A stretch of 47,732 nucleotides of DNA from a virus (taxonomy: Duplodnaviria; Heunggongvirae; Uroviricota; Caudoviricetes). This document shows positions 28,828 through 46,645 of this stretch, one piece after another (position 1 is the stretch's first letter; each line of letters begins with the position of its first letter). Under the pieces are notes generated by a model. The model was not told the DNA's origin. It did no database searches and saw only the letters and a program-made list of their open reading frames with translations. Where the stretch lies: the IMG/VR virus record IMGVR_UViG_2562617057_000003; one strand, written 5' to 3'. The position numbers were made by a program, and so were the translations under genes.

Positions 28828-28940
28828 GGATATTTATCAGGATTTATCGGCTTCAAATCCCCGGATATGTTAAATCTTACCTCGCCAGTGATGGGCACTG
28901 GCGGGAGGAGGATGTCAATCTGATAAACACAGAGGTGACT

Positions 28941-29201
28941 ATGGATTACACAAATCTACCAAAACAAACTTTTGCTGATTTAATCGCACTCAGGCAAGCA
29001 GTCGTAGCTCTAATCAACTTGTTGCCGGAGAAGGAAAAGGAATTAGTTAAAGCGCTTCTTAACAGAACTGCCGCCGATTTTTCATCATATCCACTGACAG
29101 ATGACCTTGCGGACCTTCCTGAATTAATTGCAGCGTCCACCATTAAGCTTACTGAAGAGATTTACCCTCCTCAAAAATCTTCACAAAATTCCTGCGAGTA
29201 A
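28941..29201 (+). CDS. Hypothetical 86-aa acidic protein, convergent to and overlapping the 176-aa ORF
   Basis: ATG at 28941 with RBS AGAGG 5 nt upstream; plus strand inside a minus-strand late operon; no family recognised. Confidence 0.4.
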   Translation: MDYTNLPKQTFADLIALRQAVVALINLLPEKEKELVKALLNRTAADFSSYPLTDDLADLPELIAASTIKLTEEIYPPQKSSQNSCE

Positions 29202-29899: not shown

Positions 29900-29966
29900 A
29901 ACCCCACCTCGCAGATGCGGGTGCTGTGTAATGGAAATAAAAAGACCACCTGACGTGGCCACCAGA

Positions 29967-31019
29967 TTATTTCCCCACCAGCTCGTTTATCTCTTTCACT
30001 GTCTGGTTAAACCGCTCTGACTCAAGCTCAACACCTAAGGCCCGACGCCCCAGCGCCATTGCTGCTTTTATTGTGGAACCGGATCCCATAAAAAAATCAG
30101 CAACCAGATCACCAGGTCGACTACTGGCATTGATTATTTGCCTGAGCATATCCGCCGGTTTCTCGCACGGATGTTTACCCGGGTAGAACTGAACGGGCTT
30201 ATGCATCCAGACATCGGTATAAGGCACGGATACTGATACGGAGAAATAGCGCCGGAGAGATTTAAACTCATCCAGCAATTCAGAATATTTGCGATTCAGT
30301 GAATCATAAGATGCCACCAGCTGGTGGTGTGGTTGTTCCAGTTGTTGTTCCTGAAACTTCTCTGCCGCTATATGGGAAAACAGTGCCTGTAACTTCCGAT
30401 AGTCAGCCTCATTCGGCAACTGCCACTGACTGGCACCAAACCAGTGGGAAACCATATTTTTCTTACCTGTGGCTTCGGCAATTTGTTTTGCCGTTATACC
30501 CAGTTCGGCACGAGCATCCCTGAAATACGATATCAGCGGTGCCATTATGTGCTGTTTGAGTTCCCTTTCTTTTGCCGCATAGCCGTCACTTTTGCCGCGA
30601 TATGGCCCCTGGTAATGTTCAGCAAACAGAACGCGCTCTGTGGCAGGAAAATATGCGCGCAGACTTTCTTTATTACACCCATTCCAACGTCCGGACGGCT
30701 TCGCCCAGATGATATGGTTAAGCACGTTGAAACGTTCACGCATCATGATCTCAATATCAGATGCCAGGCGATGCCCACAGAACAGGTAAAGGCTTCCGGC
30801 AGGCTTCAGCACCCGCCAGAACTGCGTCAGACACTGGTCCAGCCATTTCAGGTAATCATCATCGCCCTTCCACTGGTTATCCCAGCCTTCGGGTTTCACT
30901 TTGAAGTATGGCGGGTCTGTGACTATCAGATCGACAGAGTTTTCCGGTAAGGTCTGGATAAATTCCAGGCAATCAGCGTTGATTAACTCACAACTGGATA
31001 TTTTTACAGTATTAATCAT
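29967..31019 (-). CDS. Orphan DNA N6-adenine methyltransferase
   Basis: 350 aa; motif IV DPPY early ([10 protein letters not shown]), AdoMet motif FFMGSGST near the C-terminus; no adjacent restriction endonuclease ORF. Confidence 0.88.
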
Positions 31020-31169
31020 AGATCAATAAGCACTTCTCTGATAGGCTCATACCGCTTTTGCGCAAAGCAGATGGGCCTGAGGTTTGCTTGTGACCCCAAC
31101 GCATGAGCAGATGGCTGGCAGGTGCCGCTAACACCCACCAGCCGCCCATTACCACAAATTAAAAAGCCT

Positions 31170-31367
31170 TCACTGCGGAAGGCGTCTGTAACAACCGAAC
31201 TGATAATCTGCCAGACCCGCCATAACAAGCTGGGTCAGTATTAACTGGCAGCGTTCGCGTGAAAGGTAAGTATTCTGCGCAATTTCCCCGACGGTCGCCG
31301 GTTCGGTGACGCTTAATTCATTAAACACCACTCTGGCGGTTTCGGTCATATCCTGCTGTTTTAGCAT
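31170..31367 (-). CDS. Small winged-helix-like hypothetical protein (65 aa)
   Basis: ATG 31367 preceded by AAGGG; MLKQQDMTETARVVFNELSVTEPATVGEIAQNTYLSRERCQLILTQLVMAGLADYQ; the longer ORF-track start lies inside the terminator. Confidence 0.5.
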   Translation of the reverse strand: MLKQQDMTETARVVFNELSVTEPATVGEIAQNTYLSRERCQLILTQLVMAGLADYQFGCYRRLPQ

Positions 31368-31490
31368 GCCTTTTTCCCTTTTCCGATTAACGTGACACAC
31401 CAATACCTCTTGTCGAAAAAGCCAGCAAGTTGAAAGACCGGTATTCGCAACCACCAGCGCGTTTAATGTTCTGTACCGCTTTTCGGGCAC

Positions 31491-31517
31491 AAAAAAACCC
31501 GCTCATCGGCGGGTTTA
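31491..31517 (-). terminator. Intrinsic terminator downstream of the Q-proximal antirepressor-like gene
   Basis: Minus strand AAACCCGCCGATGAGCGGGTTTTTTTGTG: GC stem plus 7 T. Confidence 0.65.
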
Positions 31518-31591
31518 AGCTGTGTGGCGTAGTAACCACTCTTAACAGGATATTCAACTTTTTACGATCGTAAAGCGTTCGGGGGAAATTT

Positions 31592-32152
31592 TTAAAGCCG
31601 CATCAACCGCTCCACCAGTTGCTCTTTACGGGCAACGATCCACCCGTGTTGCTCCAGATAAAATTTAAACCGTTCCAGAGTGCATACCATCACATCGGCA
31701 GGTACTTTTTCCGTGAAGTCGACCTGACCGTGTTTATCGAAGTGGATCAGTAATGCGCATCCATCATTTTCGATAGATGTGTTTTGTGCCGCTGGTGGTT
31801 GTTTTTGGTTGAAATAACAGTCTTCCAGTTTTTCGAATACTTCCCACGCCTGATCGGTTTCGAGCATTTTGGCGTGACGGGCTGCTCCGCGTTCTGTCCA
31901 GAGTATGAGCTTTCGGACATTTGGGGCGATCGTTTGAAAATCCCTTAAAGAGATTTTCAAATTTTGGAGGTCTGCGCCTTTCGCAATTATGTAGTGCTTC
32001 CCTTCTGCAAATCGCTCTTTATTACGGTGGTGATTTCTATGAATACACTCGACGCTACAGCCATATAGTTTGGCCAGTAACTCTGTAGTGACAACTGGGA
32101 GCTGGTTGTGTGTGATCGGGGAAAGAGTTTCGACAGAAACTTGAGTCGTCAT
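31592..32152 (-). CDS. Antirepressor-like protein (ORF6N-type N-terminal domain, Ant-type C-terminal domain)
   Basis: 186 aa; C-terminal ...ALLIHFDKHGQVDFTEKVPADVMVCTLERFKFYLEQHGW is paralogous to the C-terminus of the antirepressor at 42835-43392. Confidence 0.7.
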   Translation of the reverse strand: MTTQVSVETLSPITHNQLPVVTTELLAKLYGCSVECIHRNHHRNKERFAEGKHYIIAKGADLQNLKISLRDFQTIAPNVRKLILWTERGAARHAKMLETDQAWEVFEKLEDCYFNQKQPPAAQNTSIENDGCALLIHFDKHGQVDFTEKVPADVMVCTLERFKFYLEQHGWIVARKEQLVERLMRL

Positions 32153-32311
32153 GATAACGCCCTCTGGTTGATGGATTTAACTATCACCACCGTCAGGTTC
32201 CAATCATTGGGTGGTGAGACGTACAGGGTTGGAACTACCGGATCAACCAACCGGCGAGCCTTTCAGCTCCCCCATACGCCCCACCATTATTCAGATGTGC
32301 GTGTGCTTACG

Positions 32312-34701: not shown

Positions 34702-34857
34702 TTACTCCTCAGGTTCGTAAGCTGTGAAGACAGCGACCTCCGTCTGGCCGGTTCGGATTCGTACCTCGCAGAGGTCTTTCCTCGTTACCAGTGCCGTCAC
34801 AATGACGGTAATACAGATGACGATCAGGGCGACTAACATCGCCTTTTGCTGCTTCAT
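34702..34857 (-). CDS. hok: Hok/Gef-family type I toxin
   Basis: 51 aa MKQQKAMLVALIVICITVIVTALVTRKDLCEVRIRTGQTEVAVFTAYEPEE, near-identical to E. coli HokD/RelF-type toxins. Confidence 0.9.
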   Translation of the reverse strand: MKQQKAMLVALIVICITVIVTALVTRKDLCEVRIRTGQTEVAVFTAYEPEE

Positions 34858-35068
34858 AGCCTGCTTCTCCTTGCCTTTCGGCACGTAAGAGGCTAACCTA
34901 GATTTGCCGTTCATAGATTGAGCCTCAGATTAATGTTAAGCGTCTTGCCGGACGCGTAATGTTAACTGGGGCTTTTCTCTATCTGCCTTTTGGTGTTCAT
35001 GCCTGAGACAGATAGCCTCAAGCACCCGCTGCAATTCTACTTAACTCTCCTTTTCCCGCAAACCGTTT
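34858..35068 (-). promoter_or_regulatory. hok mRNA leader (mok-like upstream ATG; expected site of antisense Sok RNA)
   Basis: About 210-nt leader with an in-frame upstream ATG at 34914 and several hairpins, as in hok/sok loci; Sok promoter not pinpointed. Confidence 0.45.
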
Positions 35069-42348: not shown

Positions 42349-42834
42349 AAGTGAATTTTGTGATGCGGTGAATGCGGCTCAGCGCACGCGGCACAGTTAA
42401 AAAGCGATTAGTTCCCCCGTATCGGGTGGTTATGGGTTTCCCTGTATCCGGCGTTAATTGTTAACTGGTTAACGTCACCTGGAGGCACCAGGCACCGCAT
42501 CAACAAAGTTCACTTCGGTGATGAAAGGAAAGAGAAAATGTTGAATGTAGCTATTGAAAACCAGAACGGGTGGAATTATAGTGCACCTGCACCTTATAAA
42601 ACGGGTGCCGGGCGTGGAAACCCGAACGTTACTCGAGCGCATAGCCGCGCTGAAGCGGTTTTTTTATGCGTAATGCACAGCTCCATTCAAATTATGGTGG
42701 GATGTGCAGGGCAGTCGCAAGACTGGCCGGGTTCTCGAGTGACCGGTATTTCCACCCCTGTACGTCTCACCACCCTTATGGTCGTGGAAAACCTCGGTGG
42801 TGAGTTAATTAACTTATCACTCGAGGATGCCATC

Positions 42835-43392
42835 ATGGCTACTATCCCTGCCCTTTCTCACCCTGACGTAACCATCGAAAATGGTCGCGCTGTCACTACG
42901 TCTATTGCGATCGCAGAGTTCTTTGGCAAGCGTCACGACAATGTGTTACGTGCCATCGCAAATACTGAATGCTCACCTGAATTTAACGCCCTCAATTTTG
43001 AGGACGTCACCTACACTGACGCCAAAGGCGAAAAACGCCCGATGTACCAAATCACCAAAAACGGCTTCGTTTTCCTGGTGATGGGATTCACTGGCAAAAA
43101 AGCCGCTGCATTTAAAGAAGCCTACATTGCTGAGTTCGATCGCATGGAGGCCGAACTGCGCCAGAATAACACCCCACCTGCTGACAAGATGATTCCGGGT
43201 GATGGTCGCACTCTGGTTGTTCACTTCGACAAATTCGGCAATGTCGAATTCACCGAAACCGTTCCTGATGGCGCACTGGTCTGTACCCTGGAGACTTTCC
43301 GGTTTTATCTGGAAAAACAGGGATGGACTCTTGTTAACCGGGGCGCAATTAAAAATATGACTGTGGAACAATTACTCAAAATTCATTGTTGA
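42835..43392 (+). CDS. Rha-family antirepressor (Ant)
   Basis: 185 aa from ATG 42835 (RBS GAGGA); N-terminal Rha-type ...AVTTSIAIAEFFGKRHDNVLRAIA...; C-terminal Ant-type domain shared with 31592-32152; the ORF-track upstream extension is probably non-coding leader. Confidence 0.8.
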   Translation: MATIPALSHPDVTIENGRAVTTSIAIAEFFGKRHDNVLRAIANTECSPEFNALNFEDVTYTDAKGEKRPMYQITKNGFVFLVMGFTGKKAAAFKEAYIAEFDRMEAELRQNNTPPADKMIPGDGRTLVVHFDKFGNVEFTETVPDGALVCTLETFRFYLEKQGWTLVNRGAIKNMTVEQLLKIHC

Positions 43393-43872: not shown

Positions 43873-46314
43873 ATGAGCACTGATAAAGAAGAATTTGCAC
43901 TATATTGCGAAGCAAAAAATGACAAAGTAAGAAAACGCCTGGGAATTAAAGGTGGTTTTTACTGGACTACAGCAAAAAAATTATCTGTTGCAATCTCCCG
44001 CTGCATTACCGCAATGGATGACAACGATTATGATGAAGACGACTTTAAAAAACCCGTCCGCGTCAATTTGCCCGTTGTTGACGACCTTCCGCCAGAAGGC
44101 GTGTTTGATACTGAATTCTGCAACCGCTATGAAAAAGGCGGGAAAGATGGCATCACAATGACATTTATCGGCCCTTCCCCCTCTGTTCAGGACAAACCAG
44201 CCAGCACTGACAATACCAACATCAACGGCGAAGACATGACTGAGATTGAGGAGAGCATGCTTCTGCCTGTCTCCGGTCAGGAACTGCCCATTCGTTGGCT
44301 TGCTCAACACGGCAGCGAAAAACCAGTAACGCACGTTTCACGCGACGAACTCCAGGCATTACACATTGCATGGGCTGAAGAACTACCGGCTGTTACTGCC
44401 CTGGCTATTTCGCATAAAACCAGTCTGCTCGACTCGCTGGAGATTCGCGACCTCCACAAACTGGTTCGTGACACTGACAAAATTTTCCCTAATCCTGGTA
44501 ATTCAGACCTGGGACTAATAACTGCTTTTTTCGAAGCATACCTGGACGCTGACTACACTGATCGGGGTCTGCTGACAAAAGAGTGGATGAAAGGAAATCG
44601 TGTTTCACGCATCACCCGCACGGCTTCCGGTGCTAATGCTGGCGGTGGGAACAAAACCGATCGCAATCCGAATTTAGTACACACCCTCGACACACTGGAT
44701 GTGGAGATTGCAGCAGCCACACTTCCGATGGATTTTAATATTTATGAAATTCCGGGCAGCGTTTATCGTCGCGCAAAAGAAGTAGTTCTGAACAAAGAAA
44801 GTCCGTTCAAAGAATGGTCCGCAGCACTTCGTGCAACCCCGGGTATTCTGGACTATTCCCGCGCCGCTATTTTTGCACTTATCCGAAGCGCACACCCTGA
44901 ATTTTATCACTACCCGGGACGCCTTCAGGGGTATATCAACGCCTATTTGACGGAAACTGATCACGAGAACCCCAGCAAGGAAACTCTCACAGCTGCCCGG
45001 CATACGCCGGAAAAAGATATCCTGGAAGAAATTAACCGCGAGGTGGTTACTGAGCGTGAAACAGAAGAAGAAAAACCACAACCATCTGACGCAATGGCAG
45101 GTGAACAGGCAACAACTGAAACAATGGAACCGGATACAACTGAACATGGCCAGAACGCGCAGTCGCTGGATGCTCAGTCGCAGGTGAGTTCCGCTAACCA
45201 AGTAAAAGTCACCGCTGACGAAGTAAACAAAATTATGCAGGCAGCCAATATCAGCCAGCCTGACGCCGATAAGTTACTTGCTGTATCGCGTGGTGAATTT
45301 GTTGAGGGGATTAGCGACCCGAATGATCCGAAATGGGTCAAAGGGATCCAGACTCGCGATTCTGTGAACCAGAACCAGCATGAATCGGAACGGAACGACC
45401 AAAAAGCGGAACAAAACAGCCCAAATGCGTTACAAAACGAGCCAGAAACGAAACAATCCGAACCAGTGGCGCAACAGGAAGTGGAAAAAGTCTGCACCGC
45501 CTGCGGTCAGAGCGGTGGCGGCAACTGCCCTGATTGTGGTGCGGTGATGGGTGACGCAACATGCCTGGAAATATTCGATGGAGAGAATCAGCCTGAAGTT
45601 CAGGAAGATGATCCGGAGGAAATGGAAGGCGCTGAACATCCACACAAGGAGAACACTGGCGGCAATCAGCATCACGATAGCGATAATGAAACTGGCGAGA
45701 CGGCAGATCACTCAATTAAGGTGAACGGTCATCAAGAAATCACATCCACCAGCAGGACGTGTGACCATCTAATGATCGACCTTGAAACCATGGGAAAAAA
45801 TCCTGATGCCCCGATCATCTCAATAGGTGCAATATTTTTCGATCCGCAAACCGGAGATATGGGACCGGAATTTAGTAAGACTATCGATCTGGAAACTGCT
45901 GGCGGAGTCATTGATCGGGACACCATTAAATGGTGGCTTAAGCAATCACGCGAAGCGCAATCTGCCATTATGACCGATGAAATCCCGTTAGATGATGCAC
46001 TGTTACAATTGCAGGAATTTATCGACGAAAACTCCGGTGAATTTTTTGTTCAGGTCTGGGGAAATGGAGCCAACTTCGACAACACGATTTTGCGCCGTTC
46101 ATACGAACGGCAGGGGATCCCCTGCCCGTGGCGTTACTACAACGATCGCGATGTACGCACAATCGTTGAGCTGGGGAAAGCCATAGACTTCGATGCCAGA
46201 ACGGCTATTCCATTCGAAGGTGAGCGCCATAATGCACTTGATGACGCCCGTTACCAGGCAAAATACGTTTCAGTTATCTGGCAAAAACTGATCCCGAGTC
46301 AGGCTGATTTTTAA
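43873..46314 (+). CDS. Large exonuclease: RecE-like N-terminal region, acidic linker with zinc ribbon, C-terminal DnaQ-like (DEDDh) 3'-5' exonuclease domain
   Basis: 813 aa; C-terminal motifs LMIDLETMG (Exo I), WGNGANFD (Exo II), [11 protein letters not shown] (Exo III); [16 protein letters not shown] zinc ribbon; N-terminal segment resembles what I recall of RecE. Confidence 0.75.
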
Positions 46315-46375: not shown

Positions 46376-46645
46376 ATGAGCGAACAGTACCTGATAACGC
46401 TCGACGAGTGGAAACCAAAACGGTTCAGTCTCCCAATAACAAACACTACCCTGGTGAAATACGGAAAACTAGGATACATCGTTCCAAGGCCACAAAAAAT
46501 TCGTGGGCGTTGGCTGATAGATCGCCGGGCAGTATTTGTTGGGCCTGGTGAAACGGGAATTGCGCCGGAAATTCATACTGGCGATGATGATGCACTGAAG
46601 GAGATTTTAACTCATGTCACCGAGGCCACGAAAAAACAGCACTGA
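46376..46645 (+). CDS. xis: Excisionase-like protein
   Basis: About 89 aa MSEQYLITLDEWKPKRFSLPITNTTLVKYGKLGYIVPRPQKIRGRWLIDRRAV...; immediately upstream of and overlapping int; RBS GGAG. Confidence 0.65.
   Translation: MSEQYLITLDEWKPKRFSLPITNTTLVKYGKLGYIVPRPQKIRGRWLIDRRAVFVGPGETGIAPEIHTGDDDALKEILTHVTEATKKQH

Follow-up and report, generated by a model that had tools for sequence, protein, structure and literature searches.

The closest described relative of the enzyme treated here is M.EcoGII, which methylates adenine in any sequence context and harms cells when it is expressed constitutively (PMC5778455; PMC7544214). M.EcoGI and M.EcoGII, from a prophage of Escherichia coli O104:H4 C227-11, are silent in the lysogen, and protection of progeny DNA has been proposed as the role of M.EcoGII (Murray et al., 2018, PMC5778455). 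For the region upstream of the enzyme, the closest described system is the isrK-orf45-anrP locus of Gifsy-1, in which a promoter after the antiterminator gene Q yields the short RNA IsrK and, upon read-through, an RNA of about 910 nucleotides (nt) (Hershko-Shalev et al., 2016, PMC4825925). The short IsrK activates in trans the translation of orf45 and, by translational coupling, that of anrP, and AnrP in turn increases the expression of Q and triggers prophage induction (PMC4825925). A methyltransferase gene in the same arrangement as here is orf48 of phage SfV, which is preceded by orf47. These systems were compared with positions 29,967 to 32,152 of the IMG/VR virus record IMGVR_UViG_2562617057_000003, the whole analyzed stretch of which (47,732 nt) is called the window. 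The segment lies between Q and the holin gene of a lambdoid prophage, and its genes, as well as the promoter-like sites, hairpins and RNA elements described for it below, are all on the minus strand. With good confidence, the sequence comparisons identify it as an isrK locus followed by an M.EcoGII-type methyltransferase cassette, which would be expressed late and in a Q-dependent manner and would act against restriction.

The methyltransferase gene (31019-29967) encodes a protein of 350 amino acids (aa), which matched the Pfam family PF01555 (N6_N4_Mtase) with an E value of 1.2e-42 over residues 29-341, as expected for a beta-class N6-adenine DNA methyltransferase. The motif order of this class was found, with an N-terminal catalytic DPPY motif (residues 35-38), a central region, and a C-terminal FxGxG motif for the binding of S-adenosylmethionine (SAM), which here reads FFMGSG (residues 309-314). 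Both motifs are invariant in the family alignment. The identity to M.EcoGII was 83% over 349 aa, a value that was obtained with an M.EcoGII sequence machine-read, with a few reading errors, from the supplement of PMC11551740. The identity to the enzyme of phage 1720a-02, which has been named a close relative of M.EcoGII (Murray et al., 2018, PMC5778455), was also 83%. The protein shares with M.EcoGII and M.EcoGI a length of 349-350 aa, the motif order, the location in a prophage and the lack of a partner nuclease, and silence in the lysogen is expected for it as well. In line with an initial annotation of the segment, which had described a DPPY-type methyltransferase of 350 aa without a cognate nuclease, no nuclease gene was found at the flanks of the gene, the neighbors being a small winged-helix open reading frame (ORF) and the holin gene. 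A reading as part of a defense system was rejected, as PADLOC returned only methyltransferase (MTase_II) models and weak chance matches. A sequence search of the PDB retrieved only distant beta-class methyltransferases; a structure of M.EcoGII does not exist. Judged by its sequence, the protein is a member of the M.EcoGII family.

It can be inferred on good grounds that the window copy also methylates adenines non-specifically. Reconstructed ancestors that span the M.EcoGII clade retain non-specific activity, and the identity of the window protein to one of them, Anc284, is 70%. Because the characterized member of the family and the reconstructed ancestors lack sequence specificity, "any A" is the most likely outcome of a recognition-motif search. 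An alternative would be that the window enzyme is sequence-specific or inactive, and that it protects against particular restriction systems or against none. The 17% of the residues that differ from M.EcoGII are indeed concentrated at about residues 140-265, between the catalytic and the SAM-binding motif, and specificity is not readable from the sequence in this family (PMC7544214). Yet this alternative is very unlikely, considering that the conserved motifs are all intact, that the gene itself is intact and conserved across many genera, and that reconstructed ancestors more distant from M.EcoGII than the window protein are still non-specific. In addition, homologues with about 93% similarity are labelled non-specific in REBASE-based annotation.

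The methyltransferase gene belongs to a cassette with the order terminator, small ORF, spacer of about 150 nt, methyltransferase gene, terminator, and the same order is found in SfV, phiP27, mEp460, cdtI, 1720a-02 and many Shiga toxin (Stx) phages. The agreement with SfV orf47-orf48 comprises order and spacing, from the terminator via an ORF of 64-65 aa, the spacer of about 150 nt, the methyltransferase of 350 aa and a second terminator to the holin gene, and the identity to the SfV protein is 94% for each of the two cassette proteins. The strong terminator upstream of the small ORF (hairpin 31516-31495) aligns with a terminator annotated in SfV, and a terminator-like hairpin between the methyltransferase and the holin gene (29944-29960, -9.5 kcal/mol) is located at the position of another one. 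The two loci differ in that the cassette directly follows Q in SfV, whereas an isrK/ORF6N module intervenes in the window. In Stx phages, in contrast, tRNA and toxin genes follow the cassette; tRNA genes were not found in the whole window. The Q-to-holin segment is, in all probability, a juxtaposition of two known and widespread lambdoid modules, i.e., the isrK locus and the methyltransferase cassette.

The cassette turned out to be very common. Of 5426 complete E. coli genomes, 2585 contained at least 80% of a 1.4-kb unit that begins with the small ORF and ends with the methyltransferase gene, and a single genome had up to seven copies. The arrangement extended by the ORF6N gene and Q was rare (31 genomes). 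The initial annotation had presented the segment as cargo in a lambdoid insertion site that follows Q and pR'. The site is the known one (Tree et al., 2014, PMC4104026), but the word cargo overstates the rarity of a cassette that is widespread and fixed. In a species scan with one genome per species, 80 methyltransferase loci with protein identities of 63-92% were found across the Enterobacterales, in the genera Enterobacter, Salmonella, Citrobacter, Klebsiella, Kluyvera, Erwinia, Pantoea, Yersinia, Serratia, Hafnia, Photorhabdus and Xenorhabdus. Most of these loci are downstream of a DUF968 and/or a Q gene, and many are upstream of lysis genes. In a locus of Erwinia tracheiphila (L130, 4001-5039) the methyltransferase match was split into overlapping pieces in different frames (4001-4156 and 4155-5039), which suggests a frameshifted pseudogene.

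The spacer upstream of the methyltransferase gene was found to contain a conserved structured leader RNA of about 150 nt (31165-31020). The initial annotation had overlooked this leader, while all features that it had listed for the segment, including the genes and the terminator, were recovered in their places. Nucleotide-level conservation of the leader extends to most of the 80 loci of the species scan, including loci with methyltransferases of only 64% identity and loci devoid of the small ORF. An alignment of 53 leaders, which was built with MAFFT without structure information, supported a junction of the helices P1, P2 and P3, followed by the hairpin P4. In the window these are located at 31148-31144/31076-31072 (P1), 31143-31113 (P2), 31112-31106/31088-31083 (P3, with the loop GGUCACA at 31095-31089) and 31073-31048 (P4), and the sequence UGAUC (31024-31020) is found just before the AUG of the methyltransferase gene. 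The fraction of paired cells in the alignment was 92.5%, compared with 30-44% when the partners were slid by one to three columns, and the number of double-sided pair changes was 15 versus 6-9 in these slid controls. P2, a long hairpin with an internal loop, had compensatory changes at 8 of its 11 pairs. One pair of P3 was present as C-G in 28 leaders, as A-U in 10, as U-A in 8 and as U-G in 6, with zero mismatches. In the window, a covarying pair of P3 is located at 31110/31085. The minimum free energy of the window leader was -61.4 kcal/mol (z -3.5).

The linkage of the leader to the methyltransferase gene was very tight. With a covariance model built from 41 leaders, a single strong hit (64-172 bits) was obtained immediately before the methyltransferase gene in each of 58 sources; the scores were 127.8 bits for the window leader and 157 bits for that of SfV, and 1720a-02 was also hit. 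The model gave no further hits elsewhere in the window and none in Gifsy-1. Furthermore, the leader core was found in 120 IMG/VR viral contigs, and the methyltransferase gene followed at a fixed spacing in 119 of them, the remaining contig ending 111 nt after the leader match. That the leader is a conserved, covarying structured RNA, strictly linked to M.EcoGII-family genes across the Enterobacterales, is thus well supported. It appears to be undescribed, although an earlier description outside the literature that was searched is possible. An upstream winged-helix ORF and a structured leader are not mentioned for M.EcoGII in the available part of its description (PMC5778455).

Several other explanations for the conservation of the leader were rejected. 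A hidden protein-coding ORF was not found, as the spurious frames differ between loci and a mini-ORF encoding MGGWWVL is not conserved; the conservation is not coding, because insertions and deletions change the frame of these spurious ORFs from locus to locus. Nor do all loci have stop codons that are in frame with the methyltransferase AUG or overlap near it. A structure on the opposite strand or at the DNA level only is unlikely, because the frequent G-U pairs would be A-C mismatches on the other strand, which places the structure on the sense strand. A search of Rfam retrieved no leader family, but only chance-level hits far below the gathering scores at E values up to 10, including for a divergent leader, and identity with AgvB, AsxR, isrJ, a StxS-like small RNA or a known riboswitch or ribozyme had no support in Rfam. 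AgvB and AsxR are short RNAs in convergent orientation and have another location (PMC4104026).

Some loci deviate from the common leader. In Photorhabdus and Xenorhabdus (loci L133-L163), a short form of the leader is present about 100 nt upstream of the methyltransferase gene, with the sequence GUGAAAUGG, the P2 hairpin and the sequence CAUUCGCC, and without P3 and P4. The covariance model did not detect this short form (19 bits, E 0.12). In Erwinia endophytica (L108) and a Pantoea sp. (L122), the methyltransferases have identities of 75-77%, and neither the small ORF nor a recognizable leader is present. In addition, a hairpin P0 (31166-31183, about -9 kcal/mol) lies directly upstream of the leader over the stop codon of the small ORF; it is followed by a U-rich tract and resembles a weak terminator. 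A hairpin at the position of P0 is present in most related loci, including loci without the small ORF, with differing sequences of its arms.

Folded 5' leaders have been connected to adenine methyltransferases before. The D12-methyl motif of Rfam is located upstream of phage methyltransferases of the D12 class, and ErmC represses its own translation by binding to its mRNA. As in these two cases, a conserved folded leader is tied to an adenine methyltransferase gene here. The leader is not a D12-methyl motif, as the score of a related leader with that model was 13 bits versus a gathering score of 57 and the methyltransferase classes differ, the window enzyme belonging to the beta-class (PF01555); in comparison with ErmC, autoregulation through the window leader is hypothetical.

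The position of the leader directs attention to the start codon of the methyltransferase gene, which has no Shine-Dalgarno sequence and is found in the nearly invariant context GAUC(U/C)AUG. An alternative fold of the leader with a similar overall score was found, in which P2 is extended and GGUCA...AAGCG pairs with CGCUU...UGAUC beside the start codon. Its long-range helix has little support from double changes, and the covarying P3 pair argues for P3, while a pairing of GGUCA with UGAUC is compatible with both folds. It is proposed, tentatively, that the leader represents a new class of regulatory RNA for the M.EcoGII family, in which the P3 loop would pair near the AUG and gate the translation of a toxic enzyme. 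The gate may respond to the winged-helix protein, to SAM or S-adenosylhomocysteine, or to the enzyme itself, and such a feedback is conceivable because the enzyme also binds and methylates RNA.

Alternatively, the leader could be a processing or stability element, e.g., with an RNase III site at P2, a stable small RNA that acts elsewhere, or a ligand-sensing riboswitch. In favor of this explanation, P2 is a long and well-supported hairpin with an internal loop, the short form of Photorhabdus and Xenorhabdus keeps only P2 and its flanks, and two similarly scoring folds are typical of switching RNAs. This explanation is nevertheless rather doubtful, because in all loci the leader reaches up to the start codon with a constant spacing and a Shine-Dalgarno sequence is missing, which points to a control of initiation, and because none of the known riboswitch families suggests a ligand. 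As judged from its anatomy, the leader is most likely a cis-acting RNA that restrains or times the translation of the toxic enzyme.

The small ORF upstream of the leader (31367-31170) encodes a protein of 65 aa of the SfV orf47 family (phrog_331, E 1.4e-37). The initial annotation had suspected a winged helix-turn-helix fold, and this is consistent with the predicted structure: AlphaFold2 with an alignment yielded a model with the topology H1-b-H2-H3-wing of a winged helix and a predicted local distance difference test (pLDDT) value of 90.8, while a single-sequence prediction reached a pLDDT of 53. A Foldseek search with the model retrieved the winged helices of IclR, MarR and SelB and the N-terminal ones of O-methyltransferases with template modeling (TM) scores of 0.69-0.84, the values for IclR-type winged helices being 0.82-0.84. 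These structural neighbors are generic, as they comprise DNA-binding (IclR, MarR), RNA-binding (SelB) and dimerization (small-molecule O-methyltransferases) winged helices. The label "TrmB family regulator" of databases is not established, because the Pfam TrmB match is below the threshold (18.0 bits versus a cut-off of 25.6, E 0.0026), and a match to an NCBIfam family was not found.

In the viral contigs, the methyltransferase gene was found downstream of the small ORF, with a gap of 154-155 nt, in 73 of the 74 loci with enough sequence. In the sole exception (L295, 2690-3000) the leader is cut just after P2, and the remainder of the leader and the methyltransferase gene are replaced by unrelated genes. 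In the opposite direction the linkage was weaker, as the small ORF was directly upstream in about 52 of 78 species-level loci, with identities down to 39%. This asymmetry indicates that the winged-helix gene depends on the methyltransferase gene, and not the reverse. Judged by this distribution, the cassette can do without the winged-helix protein, which is an accessory to it.

The winged-helix protein could be a dedicated transcriptional controller of the methyltransferase gene, in analogy to the C proteins of restriction-modification systems. These have an Xre-type helix-turn-helix and are encoded together with a restriction nuclease, the expression of which they delay. The location of the ORF directly upstream, its near absence without the methyltransferase gene, the predicted fold and the database name would all be in accord with such a role. 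However, no promoter-like site was found between the winged-helix ORF and the methyltransferase gene, and with 6 basic and 7 acidic residues the protein has a slightly acidic character that is not usually seen in DNA-binding proteins. Moreover, the third of the species-level loci that are devoid of the ORF keep the leader, the TrmB match is below the cut-off, and both the Xre-type fold and an accompanying nuclease gene are absent in the cassette, so that the protein is not a C protein. A role as a dedicated transcriptional controller is thus unlikely.

Upstream of the cassette, the region between Q and the ORF6N gene was compared with Gifsy-1. Right after the stop codon of Q, a promoter-like site of the sigma-70 type (TTGACC-18-TATATT, 32430-32401) was identified with 10 of 12 matches in a promoter scan. 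Its -10 region with the flanking sequence (CCGGGGCTATATTCC) is identical to the Gifsy-1 region upstream of isrK, and from its sequence the site is the equivalent of pR' and of the Gifsy-1 isrK promoter. It is followed by an isrK-type short RNA of about 78 nt (32394-32317), which starts 41 nt after the Q stop codon and matched the Rfam family RF01394 over its full length (75.6 bits, gathering score 50, E 1.1e-15). Its end coincides with a terminator hairpin at the tR' position (32338-32322, -7.7 kcal/mol). A pR' promoter had been proposed here in the initial annotation; the promoter-like site after Q agrees with it, but the RNA from this "pR'" to its terminator is isrK. A c4-a1b1 element, which comprises the target sites of C4-type antisense RNA, overlaps isrK (32407-32355; RF03163, 49.3 bits, gathering score 46.7, E 9.8e-11), and a C4-type antisense RNA element (32291-32207; RF01695, 71.8 bits, gathering score 45, E 2.6e-13) is located at the position of Gifsy-1 orf45/STnc1160. 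Translation of the aligned regions revealed a remnant of the upstream ORF orf45 with 14 codons (32243-32287), which has the same start as in Gifsy-1 (ATGGTGGGGCGTATG) and a stop codon 90 nt before the start of the ORF6N gene. In an E. coli relative (27 codons) and in Gifsy-1 (45 codons), orf45 is longer.

The gene following these elements (32152-31592) encodes an ORF6N-domain protein of 186 aa that is a homologue of AnrP. The Pfam family PF10543 matched residues 12-96 with 60 bits (cut-off 27.8, E 2.8e-16), and phrog_2379, annotated as "anti-repressor", matched the full length (E 2.8e-83), which upholds the earlier designation of the gene as antirepressor-like. The identity to STM2616/AnrP of Gifsy-1 was 50% over 185 aa (E 3e-60), and residues 1-152 had identities of 47-57% to Ant proteins of Stx phages. 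The intrinsic terminator that the initial annotation had reported downstream of this gene was also verified. It is strong (31488-31516, found with a terminator scan; -16.4 kcal/mol, z -3.8), none of 200 shuffled sequences was as stable, and its hairpin (31516-31495) consists of a GC-rich stem of 8 base pairs with a U-run. The distance from the start of isrK to this terminator is about 905 nt, which is close to the length of the Gifsy-1 RNA of about 910 nt and thus fits the same transcript.

Both loci are positioned directly after Q, and the region of 300 nt from Q to the ORF6N gene, with the promoter, isrK and the terminator, is 90% identical to the antQ-anrP region of Gifsy-1. The differences are that orf45 of Gifsy-1 overlaps the start of anrP and couples translation there, whereas the short orf45 of the window does not overlap; that isrJ was not detected downstream in the window in a search with Rfam; and that the Q protein has 225 aa in Gifsy-1 and 131 aa in the window. 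The immI region of P1 and P7, in which the c4 antisense RNA controls ant, is similar in that a C4 element and its a1b1 sites, both above the Rfam thresholds in the window, precede an antirepressor-type gene. It differs from the window locus, which is located in a lambdoid late region after Q and not in an immunity region, and which encodes an ORF6N-type protein. Taken together, these comparisons make the Q-to-ORF6N region with the ORF6N gene an isrK/C4 RNA-controlled locus of the Gifsy-1 type.

The expression of the methyltransferase gene can be deduced from the distribution of promoters and terminators. Only two promoter-like sites were found on the coding strand, the one after Q and a second one at 32315-32286. 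The two sites precede the ORF6N gene, whereas the small ORF and the methyltransferase gene have no such site in front of them. Four terminator-like hairpins were found between the promoter and the holin gene, and only the hairpin 31516-31495 is strong. In lambdoid phages, Q-modified polymerase reads through such terminators. The four hairpins and the lack of an own promoter suggest that the methyltransferase gene would be silent in the lysogen, even upon read-through of isrK, and that the enzyme would be made late. For homologues in O111 lysogens, methylation was not detectable (PMC6602927).

The best-supported reading of the cassette is a late, Q-dependent expression of the enzyme and a broad adenine methylation of progeny DNA. 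The constitutive-type promoter after Q would yield isrK, which would end at its own terminator, and a read-through RNA would cover the C4-like element and the ORF6N gene and end at the strong terminator, which would insulate the methyltransferase cassette. In the lysogen, polymerase that is not modified by Q would be halted first at the end of isrK and next at the strong terminator, so that the toxic methyltransferase would stay silent. After induction, Q-modified polymerase would pass all hairpins, and the enzyme would be made together with the lysis and morphogenesis proteins, its translation being limited or timed by the structured leader through a possible pairing with the bases immediately before the AUG. 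While the phage DNA replicates, the enzyme would then methylate its adenines largely or entirely irrespective of the sequence context, and this methylation could blunt restriction of Types I, II and III in the next host. The cost would be a sensitivity to N6-methyladenine-dependent nucleases.

Several points weigh against this reading or against parts of it. In addition to the reading errors in the M.EcoGII sequence mentioned above, the differences to M.EcoGII are located in the central region, where specificity would reside, so that the specificity of the window copy may be changed or narrowed. Apart from the strong terminator, the three other hairpins are weak, with -7.7 to -9.5 kcal/mol. 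No double-sided changes were found for the pairing of the P3 loop with the bases before the AUG. The winged-helix ORF is missing in about one third of the species-level loci and is thus not essential, and the truncation of orf45 to 14 codons means that the coupling mechanism of Gifsy-1 may fail to carry over to the window. In the literature, no demonstration of an anti-restriction benefit for the M.EcoGII family in phage infection was found.

This last point leaves room for a role of the methyltransferase other than restriction escape, e.g., as a mark for packaging or replication, in late expression, in RNA methylation or in a defense other than restriction. M.EcoGII also methylates RNA and single-stranded DNA (PMC5778455; PMC7544214), and the cassette is present in about half of the E. 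coli genomes regardless of their restriction repertoire. A phage experiment that shows protection was not found in the literature that was read. Such a role is still quite unlikely, because many restriction systems are most simply overcome at once if adenines are methylated throughout, because this is the role proposed in the characterization of the enzyme (PMC5778455), and because the position among the late genes fits a modification of the DNA just before packaging. Escape from restriction is therefore retained as the probable benefit. The idea of the initial annotation that an orphan methyltransferase expressed late would methylate and protect progeny DNA is thus partly supported, its outline being right and its picture of the locus incomplete.

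The methyltransferase, its companion ORF and the isrK/antirepressor locus were already known and are very common, and as a finding of cargo the segment adds little. The assignment of the cassette to the M.EcoGII family, however, implies that about half of the complete E. coli genomes carry a probable "methylate-any-adenine" enzyme, which would be kept silent behind terminators, and the same would be true for many other Enterobacterales. This bears on the questions of how temperate phages evade restriction and why N6-methyladenine-dependent defenses exist. The leader and the tightly linked winged-helix protein hint at the way in which an enzyme of this danger could be kept in check. M.EcoGII and its derivatives are used as laboratory tools, and a native control element for the family is thus of possible practical interest.

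The initial annotation had also regarded the antirepressor-like gene as a second antirepressor paralogue. A relationship to the KilA-N protein encoded at 27316-26819 (minus strand) was rejected, as no similarity was detectable (BLASTP, E 0.81). The C-terminal part of about 80 aa is, however, common to the ORF6N protein and to an Ash and Rha regulatory protein (42538-43392, plus strand; Pfam Phage_pRha and Phage_ASH), with 44% identity and an E value of 3e-21 (BLASTP), so that a paralogous relationship holds for this part. The shared domain is encoded at 31592-31840 (minus strand) and 43135-43392 (plus strand); phrog_25059 matches both proteins, and no Pfam family covers it. As the shared C-terminus is joined to a different N-terminal DNA-binding domain in each protein, antirepressor-like regulators seem to have exchanged domains by shuffling.

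The genes surrounding the segment show that the window is a lambdoid, Rac-like prophage, and that the host genome is of the Shigella or enteroinvasive E. coli type. The slot is bounded upstream by the Q gene (32830-32435, minus strand; Phage_antitermQ, PF06530, E 2.8e-52), which is preceded in the late region by the RusA gene (33189-32827, minus strand) and a DUF968/HNH gene (34254-33190, minus strand). Downstream, it is bounded by the gene for a P21-type class II holin with a dual start (MKSMDK; 29899-29684, minus strand; Phage_holin_2_1, E 4.7e-35). Between the holin and the endolysin gene, a gene of the DUF1327/YdfR family is located (29679-29149, minus strand), which is followed by the genes for a lysozyme (28827-28294, minus strand) and Rz (28015-27521, minus strand); an ORF of 63 aa (27765-27574) overlaps the latter at the usual position of Rz1. 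In the gap before the lysozyme gene, an ORF of 88 aa is present on the opposite strand (28935-29201, plus strand), for which no Pfam match was found.

The early region contains YdaS/YdaT-like, DUF977 and RecE-like genes, and an integrase gene is located at 46614-47732. The left end of the prophage carries a gene for an IpaH-type type III secretion effector with an LRR and a NEL E3 ligase domain (1887-3638, plus strand), which points to a Shigella or enteroinvasive E. coli host, and the DNA of the left end of the window is 99.7% identical to that of E. coli strains with ipaHd and yecD. Upstream of the DUF968 gene, a gene for a toxin of the Hok/Gef family is present (34702-34914, minus strand; Pfam E 1.5e-23). 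A protein of 813 aa (43873-46314, plus strand) contains an exonuclease VIII (RecE) domain and, at its C-terminus, an Rv2179c-like 3'-5' exoribonuclease domain.

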